A stretch of 64,000 nt of DNA from a virus (lineage: Duplodnaviria > Caudoviricetes), in IMG/VR virus record IMGVR_UViG_3300028048_000039, positions 1 through 64,000 of that record; one strand, written 5' to 3'. The position numbers and the translations under genes were made by a program. The notes beneath the pieces were generated by a model, which saw only the letters and a program-made list of their open reading frames with translations, was not told the DNA's origin and searched no databases. Positions 10,560 through 13,876 of this stretch are shown here, one piece after another (the stretch's first letter is position 1; every line of letters begins with the position of its first letter).

Positions 10560-11137
10560 GGAAAAGGTACTTGTATTTCACTTGTTCATCTCTGATGACT
10601 TTGACACCAATGACGCTTATAAGATTCATGCTGAGTGTATGAAAAGATATAAGGATGTATTCACTGACGTAAGGTTTATCATATCTGTTCCTGATGTAAC
10701 TGACAGGGCAAGGGTGCAGAAGGGTATCGATTGGGTGATGAACATAGGTTTCAATGTACCTATAACGATGAAGGTTGTGAAGAATACCGTGCTTTGTGAG
10801 ACAGATACCCTCTTTGATGAAGTCCTTAATAAATTGGATACTTTTGACGGGCTTGTTTGTTTCGCACAGGGTAAGGGTGTTTCAAATTTTTCAGAAGAGC
10901 CGATGGCACACGGGAGAAGTCTTGAGAGCATAGCAAGGTGGATTTGTGCCCTCTATTACTTCAACTTCAATTTTATGGAAGATGTCGATGGCAAACTTTT
11001 TGCGTTAAGGGGCATTGGCGAGATGTTCTATGGTCCGTGCCTTGGCTATAACTTAGACTTTCCAAATAAGGCACATTACAAATATTGTGGAACATTTTAT
11101 GGGAACTATATACATGTTGTCCTGATAGTTTCAAAAG

Positions 11138-11169
11138 AAAAGCCGTAGGGAATTAACCTATGGCTTTTT
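11138..11169. terminator. Terminator downstream of the IS passenger gene
   Basis: AAGCCGTAGG-GAATTAA-CCTATGGCTT hairpin; closely resembles the phage terminator at 53672. Confidence 0.75.
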
Positions 11170-11172
11170 CGT

Positions 11173-12096
11173 TTACATCATTGTATCGTTATTTGACAAC
11201 ACTTTTATTTGTTCGTTATTGTAATTGTATTTATCGCTATATGTTATTTCCCCAAACAAGTCTAATGCCGAAGGCGGAATTGTTTCAAGGCAGAAATAGC
11301 CATATGGGAAATGCCCATCTCCATAGAAATCAATATTATTAGGAACATTTTTCATTGTAATCCTTATTAGGGCATATTTTCCATTTTTTAATTTAATGTT
11401 CTTATTATACAACATCCACCCTAATTTTGCTGCTGCTGCTTTTGGAATATCACCTTTCATGAGATGTGCTTTGGGGTCATATGATAAAAAGTCATTCTCA
11501 TTTCTGGCTTCAATACCTCCTTGAAGAATAGATTGTAAATTACCATATGGTGTCCAATGATACAAATACTGATACCGCCTTGCTTCTTTGGTTATAGGTG
11601 GTTGCGATGCGGGGTCAAATATCATCATTCTTAAAGTAATACCGTGTACAATTGTAGGAGGTGAAACGATTGCCCTAACCCATCCATGAGTTAACATTTC
11701 ATTTTCAATGATTTTTGTGTTTTGGGCAATATCAGCATATAGTATAACTAAACGGACTTTATTATACGACACACATGATTTAACTTGCCATTTCTTAAAC
11801 CCAAGTTTTTGCAGTTCCGTTCTTAATTGGGCTATAGGAAGCGGGGCTACAGTATCTTCTCTCAAAATAGGCTCCCCCTCATCCGTTAAATTTGAACCAT
11901 ATCCTTGTGCCTGAATATAAACTCTCAAATCTGTTGCAATAGAAAGTATAGTACTCTTTGAAAGGGATTGTATATCAAAATAATCCTCAATATTAGCAGA
12001 TTCTTTGATAGATGGTATATCTAATACCTCTTGTATTGATTCTTTAATAATCCCCTTTAATTGTGTTTCAGTTATCCTTACTTTTTCCTTTGCCAT
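11173..12096 (-). CDS. IS passenger: ADP-ribosyltransferase-fold (KptA/DarT-like) protein with a head-targeting-like N-terminal leader
   Basis: YLYHWTPYGNLQSILQGGI and C-terminal ETIPPSAL; N-terminus KVRITETQLKGIIKESI resembles KITLNESQLMKIIAESI of ORF 53258. Confidence 0.6.
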   Translation of the reverse strand: MAKEKVRITETQLKGIIKESIQEVLDIPSIKESANIEDYFDIQSLSKSTILSIATDLRVYIQAQGYGSNLTDEGEPILREDTVAPLPIAQLRTELQKLGFKKWQVKSCVSYNKVRLVILYADIAQNTKIIENEMLTHGWVRAIVSPPTIVHGITLRMMIFDPASQPPITKEARRYQYLYHWTPYGNLQSILQGGIEARNENDFLSYDPKAHLMKGDIPKAAAAKLGWMLYNKNIKLKNGKYALIRITMKNVPNNIDFYGDGHFPYGYFCLETIPPSALDLFGEITYSDKYNYNNEQIKVLSNNDTMM

Positions 12097-12116
12097 AATT
12101 CTTTACCTTTTACTCA

Positions 12117-12156
12117 AATATACAAAAAATTTCTTTGAAAATCAACTATAAATAGT
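12117..12156 (-). promoter_or_regulatory. Tandem promoters of the passenger gene: ACTATTTAT (12156-12148) and TTGATT-N17-TATATT (12145-12117)
   Basis: Both recurrent phage motifs are present in the correct orientation. Confidence 0.65.
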
Positions 12157-12159
12157 TCC

Positions 12160-12425
12160 AAAAACGGAAAATCCCCAATGTTTCCATCAGGGATTATCAC
12201 TACATTTGCGTTGCCCGCTTGCGATTATCCATTGCCATCAGGCTAATAAAACTACGCAAGTTGAAGGCAAAAAGGAGGTACTTGCTTATGAAAAGTAAAA
12301 TTTTCACAAAAGCATGGCAATTTAAAGTCTTGGACTTAATGCGCCGAATGGGTATGATTGATTAAACAATCCACCAAACAAAAGATTTGTTCTCCCCGTA
12401 ACCCCTCGTTGCGGGGTTCTTCTTT
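12160..12425 (-). ncRNA. Candidate antisense RNA of about 260 nt
   Basis: TTGACA-N16-TATATT promoter (12458-12431). Minus-strand hairpin ATCCCTGATG-GAAA-CATTGGGGAT followed by a U-rich tail; its G-U pairs work only on the minus strand. No long ORF. Confidence 0.45.
12288..12365 (+). CDS. 25-aa small peptide MKSKIFTKAWQFKVLDLMRRMGMID
   Basis: Perfect SD AAGGAGGT (12272-12279), upstream TACATTTG (12201-12208), downstream plus-strand terminator CCCCGTAAC/GTTGCGGGG-TTCTTCTTT (12394-12425). Confidence 0.5.
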   Translation: MKSKIFTKAWQFKVLDLMRRMGMID

Positions 12426-12465
12426 CTATAAATATAACCAATCTTGAAAATTTGTCAAGATTTTT

Positions 12466-13452
12466 CTACGCCGCTTCACACATTCTTACATCCTTGTACT
12501 GAACCTTACCTATCGCCTTGCAGAACATATCAAGGAATCTTGCGCCTTCGCTTATCTCCCTTGTATTCCACCTGTAAACTGATTCATCTATGTACCTCTC
12601 AAGGTAGTTCTTGGAAACAAAGTGGTAGGTGCTGAACACCATCCTCTTGAAATGCGCCCAAAATCCTTCAATGCCGTTGGTGGAATAGGAACCGATAGTA
12701 AACTCTTTTGCCCCGTGCCTTACAAAGATATGGTTGTACTTCTCAGGGTTGAGAGAGCAATATGCGGAGAGTTCATCGGTGATGATGGTGCTGCCTTCGG
12801 CAACGAATTTCTCAATGATTGGGATAAGGGTTGCTGCCCTTGCATCCTTTACCTTCCTTGCATTCACGAAGGAGTGTGTCTTTTCCTTCACTTCGCCTGT
12901 CCTGCGGTTCACTTCTTCGGTTTTCCATACCATTGCCATACCGAAGATTGGTGTCTTTGTCTTCGTGCTCCTGCCCTGTGTCTTGGCGGTTTTCTTCCAT
13001 TCGTGCTTGTTCGTTTCCCTGCCGCCCAAGTACATCTCATCACACTCCACATTGCCGCTTAAAACAACGGAATCATCCTGCCTGAAAAGGGTTCTTACCT
13101 TGTGCAAGATATACCAAGCGGTTTTCTGCGTGGTGTTGATGTCCGTTGCCAATTGAACGGATGAAATGCCCTTCTTGTGGCAGGATACGAGGTACATTGC
13201 GATAAACCACTTCACAAGCGGAATCTTGGTGTTCTCAAAGATAGTTCCTACAAGCACGGAGAAGTTGCTTCCGCACTTGTGGCAGCGGTATCTTCCGTCT
13301 TTTCTCTCTGCGCAGTGGTGTCCGCCGCAGTATGGGCACACTACATCGCCCTTCTCCCATCGGGAGTCACGGATTGCCCTGCGGCATTTCTCGTTTGTAT
13401 TGAAGTAAGATGTGAGTTCGTAAATGCTGTCGAAGTGGTAGAATTTCATCAT
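12466..13452 (-). CDS. IS1595-family DDE transposase
   Basis: CPYC...CHKC zinc ribbon, GTIFENTKIPL..W, KKGISS HTH, ECDEMYLGG, ITDE, NGIEGFWAHFKR, YIDESVYRWN. Confidence 0.95.
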   Translation of the reverse strand: MMKFYHFDSIYELTSYFNTNEKCRRAIRDSRWEKGDVVCPYCGGHHCAERKDGRYRCHKCGSNFSVLVGTIFENTKIPLVKWFIAMYLVSCHKKGISSVQLATDINTTQKTAWYILHKVRTLFRQDDSVVLSGNVECDEMYLGGRETNKHEWKKTAKTQGRSTKTKTPIFGMAMVWKTEEVNRRTGEVKEKTHSFVNARKVKDARAATLIPIIEKFVAEGSTIITDELSAYCSLNPEKYNHIFVRHGAKEFTIGSYSTNGIEGFWAHFKRMVFSTYHFVSKNYLERYIDESVYRWNTREISEGARFLDMFCKAIGKVQYKDVRMCEAA

Positions 13453-13876
13453 ATTTCCCTGTCATTTCCCTTGTCATTATTATATACTGAAATAATAAGG
13501 AAATATTGCAGTGAAGTCCAGACTTTTTTTGCCTGGACTTCAACTTTTTATCTAAATTTGTGGGACAACAGGTATATAGTTCCCCATTTTATTGGCTAAA
13601 TCCTGTGAAGTTTAGCGAATGGATGAAGGAAGGGAGGATAGTTCTGCCGAAGGTGATTGACAGATATTATGCTGAGGACCTACCAGGAAACACTTGTGGC
13701 AGGGAACGATGGGGTGACGGAATTTCAAGCCATGGTGATGTATGCTTTGCAGGAAGAGACTTTGACCTTTATAATATGAATAAGGAAAAGTGGGCTCAAT
13801 GGGCAAGGATTATGAAGGGAGAAGGATTTATTGAATTTTCAGATGACATATTAAATAATATAGGAAGATAGAGATT

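Follow-up and report, generated by a model that had tools for sequence, protein, structure and literature searches.

The 344,580-bp IMG/VR record IMGVR_UViG_3300028048_000039 (G000, 93% complete) represents a giant (jumbo) rumen phage of ~345 kb, whose reads and contigs are found in cattle and sheep gut samples. The window analyzed here, its first 64 kb, contains an insertion sequence (IS) of the IS1595 family, and inside this element a 369-bp spacer separates the transposase gene from an ART-like gene, both on the minus strand. The spacer holds a cassette of ~270 bases with expression signals on both strands. A first-pass annotation had read it as a type I toxin–antitoxin (TA)-like module, in which a small peptide led by a Shine-Dalgarno (SD) sequence on the plus strand is controlled by an antisense RNA, and had offered the minus-strand RNA as an alternative functional product. 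Our analysis favors the latter, and we put it at somewhat better than even that the cassette is a minus-strand phage small-RNA gene, carried as IS cargo, that acts by pairing of an anti-SD core with SD regions. The features at the locus are as follows.

12426..12458, minus: predicted promoter, with TTGACA at 12458..12453, a 16-nt spacer and TATATT at 12436..12431, extended to TATATTTATAG
12165..12424, minus: predicted small RNA of ~260 nt; no Rfam family, folding z-score −4.2
12266..12279, minus: anti-SD motif ACCUCCUUUUUGCC, within the invariant core of the minus RNA
12160..12195, minus: intrinsic terminator, an 11-bp GAAA-loop stem at 12195..12170 followed by a U tract
12394..12416, both strands: 9-bp hairpin; 5′ stem-loop of the minus RNA and, on plus, terminator-like with a U/C-rich tail to 12426
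12200..12307, minus: alternative open reading frame (ORF), hydrophobic, 35 aa from a GTG, ending right ahead of the minus terminator; only weakly supported
12201..12208, plus: TACATTTG, a match to the Bacteroidota −7 box (TAnnTTTG) and candidate plus promoter; invariant in all three homologues
12212..12270, plus: leader hairpin, in which CTTGCG (12218–12223) pairs with CGCAAG (12245–12250)
12272–12279, plus: the ‘perfect SD’ AAGGAGGT, 8 nt upstream of an ATG
12288..12365, plus: putative 25-codon ORF, ATG at 12288 and TAA at 12363–12365
11101..13584, minus: IS1595-family element with 22-bp inverted repeats at 11101–11122 and 13563–13584
13452..12466, minus: IS1595 transposase gene, 328 aa (PF12762, PF12760, NF033547)
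12096..11173, with signals to 12156, minus: ART-like cargo gene, 307 aa, no family match

On the minus strand, the TTGACA–N16–TATATT promoter and the GAAA-loop terminator with minus-only G·U pairs are both present as the annotation had described them. The promoter matches at 11 of 12 positions and is the best site within 2.7 kb, with the stop codon of the transposase gene abutting its −35 box, and two G·U pairs of the terminator would read A·C on plus. The plus-strand motifs (box, leader, SD, 25-codon ORF and a terminator with a plus-only G·U pair) are likewise all found, with small shifts in their coordinates, and the T·G pair of the 12394–12416 hairpin on plus is a C·A mismatch on the opposite strand. 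The picture of two convergent, nearly fully overlapping units with strand-specific terminators therefore stands, and it is kept in three homologues. The U/C tail of the 12394–12416 hairpin is the complement of the purine-rich start shared by the promoter family, so that a terminator-like site on plus arises nearly automatically. The bases of the anti-SD motif, read on plus, are the perfect SD AAGGAGGT itself, and the leader helix is stronger on minus (−21.5 kcal/mol) than on plus (−17.3 kcal/mol). The TAnnTTTG-type motif is mildly enriched upstream of phage genes (9.7% vs 5.7% background). The Rfam/Infernal search that the annotation had suggested, run with the covariance models of Rfam 15, gave no match in 12097–12465 even at E-values up to 10.

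Comparison rests on three distinct versions of the cassette, those of the window (G000), L025 and L026, with no more in all collections searched; the latter two loci come from a metagenome scan. L025 represents the same element and cargo at another insertion site and is identical in at least six rumen samples, and exact look-ups of the cargo protein gave six further contigs, all identical to L025 across the cassette. L026, a contig of 13 kb, belongs to a sister phage that is 95% identical to G000 in an adjoining gene. The boxes of both promoters, both hairpins, the SD and the ATG are retained in all three independent homologues. The minus promoter of L026 has a diverged spacer sequence, yet its −35 and −10 boxes stand at an unchanged distance of 16 nt. 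The energies of the terminator differ consistently between the strands, as it folds at −16 to −19 kcal/mol on minus and at −10 to −13 kcal/mol on plus in all three homologues, a gap of 6–7 kcal/mol, and one of its pairs varies between G·U, G-C and A-U. The whole unit also folds lower on minus in each homologue (−83.8 vs −72.2, −85.9 vs −82.2 and −74.3 vs −65.5 kcal/mol). Both strands fold ~4 standard deviations better than shuffles, so the shuffle score cannot separate them. The 12394–12416 hairpin favors plus by 3 kcal/mol in the window and L025, where one compensatory A-T to G-C change is seen in L025, and is weak on both strands in L026.

The most conserved block (12240–12290, with 48 of 50 positions identical in the three homologues) surrounds the anti-SD motif. 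More broadly, a core of ~110 nt is 81–100% conserved between the IS copies and the non-IS locus L026, where the outer flank is 49% identical. A separate patch at 12281–12400, which begins right past the SD and ends inside the hairpin, differs by ~24–27% between the window and L025 copies of the IS, which are otherwise ~99% identical. This pattern suggests a recombination patch, possibly gene conversion from a third, unseen allele of the cassette. An origin by a diversity-generating retroelement was considered for this patch and rejected, as the changes are not adenine-specific.

The genomic context of L026 provides an explanation for where the cassette came from. There it has neither the IS nor the ART gene, and is flanked by a tmRNA gene on one side and an unrelated gene of 313 aa on the other, co-oriented with the tRNA/tmRNA cluster. 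In G000 the syntenic slot (86,108–86,335) has the same types of promoter and terminator, and these enclose a different RNA (~190 nt) that lacks an ORF. Together these argue that the cassette is a phage RNA-slot gene that was acquired by the IS, and that it is neither a transposition function nor an ART-specific regulator. The annotation had also proposed that the module regulates the adjacent ART gene, and this does not survive the comparison, as the L026 cassette stands upstream of the 313-aa gene, which has its own promoter. For the same reason we rejected a cis-regulatory leader or riboswitch: the downstream genes (ART-like vs 313-aa) are unrelated (E = 27), and each has its own TAnnTTTG box past the terminator. 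Rfam searches of L026 and the paralogous slots returned nothing but tRNA and tmRNA. As a side observation, G000 85,425–86,335 (L027:4426–5335) contains the tmRNA gene followed by two promoter-led non-coding stretches. The first holds several tRNA-end-like pieces, and the second (86,145–86,335), which is the slot that the cassette occupies in L026, has a mononucleotide-shuffle z-score of −2.9.

The cassette is absent next to six distant relatives of the L026 313-aa gene, BLAST and the cassette covariance model R1 found nothing in five related phages of 350–410 kb, and BLAST against 50,697 phage records gave no match. Four exact or degenerate DNA patterns had zero matches in IMG/VR, and two DNA patterns searched against GTDB genomes gave nothing, or one chance match in an archaeal contig (L035).

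From their sequence families, the minus promoter and terminator are genuine phage signals. The 55 nt at 12414–12468, which form the minus promoter block, are repeated in G000 at 172,885 (100%), 258,272 (94%) and 76,241 (78%), promoters of the same type also occur at 86,108 and 316,150, and every one of these sites precedes a gene or a short RNA. Members of the GAAA-loop terminator family follow protein genes at 103.6 kb and 242.5 kb, another stands at 86.3 kb, and their stems differ through compensating changes. At G000 172,885–173,096 (L028:1385–1596), the identical promoter block precedes a different RNA (~100 nt) and then a terminator. Past this terminator the IS terminal repeat stands alone, with one mismatch, accompanied by a terminator like that inside the left end of the IS; there is no transposase. 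This locus, which is covered by an RNA-library contig, may be an IS-end relic or a site of cargo exchange.

What gives the minus RNA a plausible function is its anti-SD core. AGGAGG is found upstream of just ~5% of the longer ORFs of G000 and the leaders are A/T-rich, which together amount to a Bacteroidota-type translation pattern. The annotation had called a perfect SD exceptional here, and rightly so: AAGGAGGT occurs just 32 times in 689 kb (both strands of G000), and ~24 of these sites are real gene starts. About 22 of the 32 lead consecutive small genes at 195–209 kb and a few others lead single genes; outside this island the genome almost never uses an SD. The island (G000 195,100–208,586, minus; L052:1100–14586) comprises ~24 consecutive small genes behind a near-identical leader, AAAAAGGAGGTA followed by 4–5 nt and the ATG. 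It includes an EcoRI-type adenine methyltransferase and a GmrSD/HNH nuclease, and its GC content equals that of the rest of the phage. A phage gene for bS21 was searched for and not found.

Since the SD-led starts share this leader, the minus RNA is complementary to 17 gene starts, with 11–13 nt of perfect complementarity. The median duplex energy of the cassette core is −21 kcal/mol with the island starts and −8.3 kcal/mol with all other starts. Within the RNA, the CUCCUUU of the motif is unpaired in the consensus structure. A second promoter-to-terminator RNA of the same phage, at G000 191040..190755 on minus, adjoins the SD island and contains the identical 14-mer ACCUCCUUUUUGCC in a loop with an unpaired probability of 0.9–1.0, and no ATG or ORF stands behind the mirror-image SD on its opposite strand. 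This precedent indicates that the phage uses the motif as an RNA feature, and it raises the anti-SD reading to the best explanation of the cassette. As for other anti-SD small RNAs, we find an independent unit with its own promoter and intrinsic terminator, and a definite group of mRNAs whose ribosome sites are complementary to it. The annotation's alternative, a functional anti-SD RNA from minus, is thus the best-supported reading, with the invariant core, the shared 14-mer and the complementary starts behind it.

RNA libraries provide an additional, weaker line of evidence. Metatranscriptome runs X18 and X19 contain contigs that lie wholly on the cassette, one of 210 nt (12204–12413) and one of 218 nt (12206–12423). 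The 218-nt contig has a depth of 7, with the IS genes on both sides at or near 0 (uncovered parts of the 2.9-kb stretch in the RNA runs are not evidence of silence), and DNA contigs of other runs extend through both ends of the cassette. At one end the RNA contigs extend to the predicted start of the minus RNA, and at the other they run ~6–10 nt past the predicted plus start; because their left end falls inside the TACATTTG box, they do not derive from a plus transcript begun at that box. We infer that the RNA detected is that of the minus strand. Given contigs that carry no strand and the lack of enrichment in X18, these data are a weak hint that the unit is transcribed, on at least one strand, as the first-pass annotation had assumed.

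Taken together, these observations suggest the following model. An IS1595 element probably took up a stand-alone phage small-RNA gene as cargo, together with the ART-like gene. Minus transcription would start ~7 nt past TATATT, near 12424, and end at the GAAA-loop terminator near 12165 to give a folded RNA of ~260 nt, whose invariant core would present ACCUCCUUUUUGCC, a copy of the 16S rRNA tail. The RNA is predicted to base-pair with SD regions and thereby block ribosome access. Possible targets in trans are ~17–24 phage genes, mostly those of the 195–209 kb island, that share the ribosome site AAAAAGGAGGTA; a possible target in cis is any transcript from the opposite strand of the cassette, and the plus ORF, if translated, would be one more small SD-class gene silenced by the minus RNA.

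Several observations weigh against this model. A pure-RNA view leaves unexplained the invariant ATG at good spacing, as well as the invariant TACATTTG box and the plus-only G·U pair, and the 25-codon frame is kept in L025 despite 24% divergence. The plus ORF also shows a third-position bias between the window and L026, with proportions of changed synonymous (pS) and non-synonymous (pN) sites of 0.64 and 0.28 (p = 0.014). The comparison draws on just three distinct homologues. The RNA contigs carry no strand, true ends or abundance, and both RNA runs come from one sample of one study; X18 shows no enrichment over the neighboring gene and also holds promoter DNA of the 172.9-kb copy. The trans targets do not count as independent evidence, because complementarity to strong SDs comes automatically with any sequence that has one of its own. 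In the single-sequence ensemble the CCUCC core has an unpaired probability of just ~40% (0.38–0.43), compared with ~99% in the 190.8-kb RNA. Finally, model R1 does not detect the 190.8-kb RNA, so that what links the two RNAs is a shared motif, not a demonstrated family relationship, although a miss by R1 does not exclude distant homology.

Coding is unproven for either strand. The SD, its 8-nt spacing and the ATG of the plus ORF are invariant in all three homologues, and mainly because of these and the equally invariant −7 box we rate translation of the 25-codon ORF at a little under an even chance. Conservation of the ORF and its SD, which the annotation had named as a check, is thus mixed: the SD and ATG hold throughout and the frame has 25 codons in the window and L025, but in L026 a TGA replaces a tryptophan codon (codon 10), leaving 9 codons, and the end of the frame comes one codon early. 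The neighboring genes of L026 are intact under the standard code, which makes recoding of TGA unlikely, and a reading of this TGA as tryptophan was rejected on that ground. If the peptide were a toxin whose synthesis is blocked at the ribosome site, or whose mRNA is sent to decay, by an abundant complementary minus RNA, the cassette would stabilize the IS or its carrier. The convergent and fully overlapping units, the extended and invariant SD with its ATG, the structured 5′ leader, an SD able to pair with the 3′ U/C tail, the third-position bias and the location on a mobile element would all suit such a type I TA-like module, and a premature stop in one lineage would suit loss of the toxin. 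The peptide itself does not resemble one. Its best 19-residue Kyte-Doolittle mean is 0.19 in the window and −0.32 in L025, so that there is no hydrophobic segment, and its hydrophobic moment of 0.33 is reached by 57% of shuffles; the amphipathic peptide of the first-pass annotation is accordingly not supported, and nearly all short type I toxins differ from it in these respects. Between the IS copies nearly all changes in the ORF are non-synonymous (pN 0.24, pS 0.19), the frame would stay open through the observed number of random changes with P = 0.40, which is not significant, and the antisense frame that shares the wobble position, itself open in all three homologues, gives pS and pN values equal to those of the plus ORF. 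Neither the plus nor the minus peptide matches Pfam or PHROGs at E-values up to 10, the plus transcript is a prediction only, and the cassette also occupies a non-mobile RNA-gene slot. With the TGA at codon 10, the peptide properties speak against an addiction module, and we regard the TA reading as unlikely. A harmless small gene of the SD-led class, with the minus RNA as a cis regulator that has no trans targets, would accommodate the invariant SD, spacing and ATG and the ORF length kept in L025, and it would have company, as some of the ~24 real starts among the 32 AAGGAGGT sites lead ORFs of just 36–64 aa. Its coding evidence is as weak as that for a toxin, including the TGA in L026; the ORF has no paralogue among the SD-led small ORFs of the phage, and the 14-mer shared with the 190.8-kb RNA, including the GCC, is left unexplained. 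This reading, too, seems to us rather improbable.

The reverse arrangement, a small hydrophobic protein encoded on minus with the plus RNA as its antisense partner, draws on a frame that no stop interrupts between 12361 and the TAG at 12202..12200 in any of the three homologues, on a borderline hydrophobic character (Kyte-Doolittle maximum 1.55–1.78), on a stop codon that abuts the terminator and on the wobble signal shared in the 12288–12365 overlap. T-rich antisense strands, though, yield hydrophobic frames by default, and the start differs in each homologue: GTG for 35 aa in the window (12307), ATG for 43 aa in L025 and ATG for 52 aa in L026. The 5′ untranslated region would be 57–117 nt, which is not what other genes led by promoters of this type have. 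Beyond the stretch shared with the plus ORF, pS equals pN, giving no codon signal, and the C-terminal third is wholly different in L026. As a search of the 52-aa ORF against 5.8 billion proteins also gave no homologue, and no family matched, we consider a minus-strand protein very improbable. The cassette could, alternatively, be hitch-hiking debris, a phage promoter and terminator captured with the ART gene whose RNA is functionless or just a leaky-terminator leader. Its generic phage boundary signals are compatible with this, as are the 5′ third that differs by 24% between IS copies otherwise 99% identical and the promoter block, whose complete identity to the 172.9-kb one suggests recombination. 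Debris would not be expected to keep the ~110-nt core conserved (81–100%) against a non-IS locus with a 49% identical outer flank, to precede different genes that each have their own promoter, or to fold with a z-score of −4, and we think this origin quite unlikely. The anti-SD small-RNA gene remains the reading we prefer. A more far-reaching version of it, which we hold to be about as improbable as captured debris, is that the transposon disseminates an ‘anti-ribosome-site’ RNA. This RNA would be the mobile form of a phage master regulator, would imitate the 16S tail and would silence the SD-led block of accessory genes in related co-infecting phages. Because host mRNAs do not use the SD, the effect of such an RNA would be specific to phage genes; it would be a weapon or immunity factor in phage–phage or phage–host conflict, and the opposite strand would be an SD-led mini-gene or decoy silenced by the same pairing.

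The element that carries the cassette has the features expected of IS1595 members, namely a DDE_Tnp_IS1595 transposase with a zinc ribbon, terminal inverted repeats and an 8-bp target duplication (CATTTTAT, at 11093–11100 and 13585–13592). The repeats and the duplication enclose 11101–13584, which confirms that the segment lies inside the IS, as the annotation had stated. The ART-like gene has its own signals, ACTATTTAT at 12156..12148 and TATATTTG at 12122..12115, and is a neighbor of the cassette rather than a component of it. The ACTATTTAT motif at window 12148–12156 (minus) recurs at G000 103,655 and 242,610, in each case a few bases past a terminator of the GGAAAC-loop family and before the next gene. 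Eleven sister IS1595 elements, with transposases 54–57% identical, lack the cassette and carry other cargo that is often convergent with the transposase. In these elements of other giant phages (L014–L024), the cargo is varied (150–377 aa) and sits directly behind the transposase, often on the opposite strand, and L014 has a similar hairpin-plus-tail element in inverted orientation. In the DNA runs X2 and X3, contigs are joined across window 11149–12088 and 12209–12486, so that variants of the IS exist in which the ART gene or the cassette is missing or replaced, and the transposase half of the IS is 2–5 times deeper than the cargo half.

Among known systems, the cassette resembles the C/U-rich small RNAs that occlude ribosome-binding sites (RsaE/RoxS, RNAIII of S. 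aureus and the alphaproteobacterial CcsR or ‘cuckoo’ RNAs). Like them, it has its own promoter and intrinsic terminator, and its RNA is folded and contains a conserved pyrimidine motif with complementarity to the SDs of a set of mRNAs. Whereas their motif is a short UCCC, that of the cassette copies 9–14 nt of the 16S tail in full; the gene is also transposon-borne, there is no Rfam match and the role is a predicted one. Ribosomes of Bacteroidia sequester the anti-SD, and the SD is used by special mRNAs only (PMC7797042, PMC9976891); in a Bacteroidota-type host, which normally makes no use of the SD, the target set would accordingly be a small, phage-specific class of genes (PMC7797042, PMC9976891). 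The 190.8-kb RNA of the same phage shares the 14-mer ACCUCCUUUUUGCC, followed by a stem that starts at GCC, and the same predicted target class. Overall, the two RNAs are not similar. The loop of the 190.8-kb RNA is fully unpaired and the cassette motif ~40–90% unpaired; the 190.8-kb RNA has no ATG or ORF on its opposite strand, and it adjoins the SD island instead of residing on an IS.

Type I TA systems of mobile elements (hok/sok, fst/RNAII, bsrG/SR4 of prophage SPbeta and the prophage modules of Clostridioides difficile; PMC6563280, PMC8594479) share with the cassette a small ORF with a strong SD, a structured leader, an overlapping cis-encoded antisense RNA with its own promoter, and the mobile location. 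In contrast to those systems, the cassette peptide, whose 25 aa fit the size range (<~60 aa), is not hydrophobic, its ORF is broken in one homologue, and the two units overlap in full, not just at one end (5′ or 3′). Reports of type I systems come from few phyla (PMC12390103, PMC8594479), so far only from Proteobacteria, Firmicutes and Tenericutes together with a cyanobacterial candidate (PMC12390103). A further comparison lies within insertion sequences themselves. RNA-OUT of IS10 is an antisense RNA encoded by an IS, and the cassette is likewise a small-RNA gene within such an element. Unlike RNA-OUT, it overlaps neither the start of the transposase gene nor any part of its mRNA; with its presence outside the IS in L026, this identifies it as cargo and not as a regulator of transposition.

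This jumbo phage, then, keeps about two dozen genes with a perfect SD and two separate anti-SD RNAs, one of them on a transposon. If the plus ORF were a toxin, the cassette would be a type I TA system in a phylum from which none has been reported (PMC12390103). If instead the predicted pairing is real, the RNAs would constitute a compact, class-specific translation switch in a host group in which small-RNA control and SD use are poorly understood, and it would mean that insertion sequences can carry regulatory RNA genes between phages.

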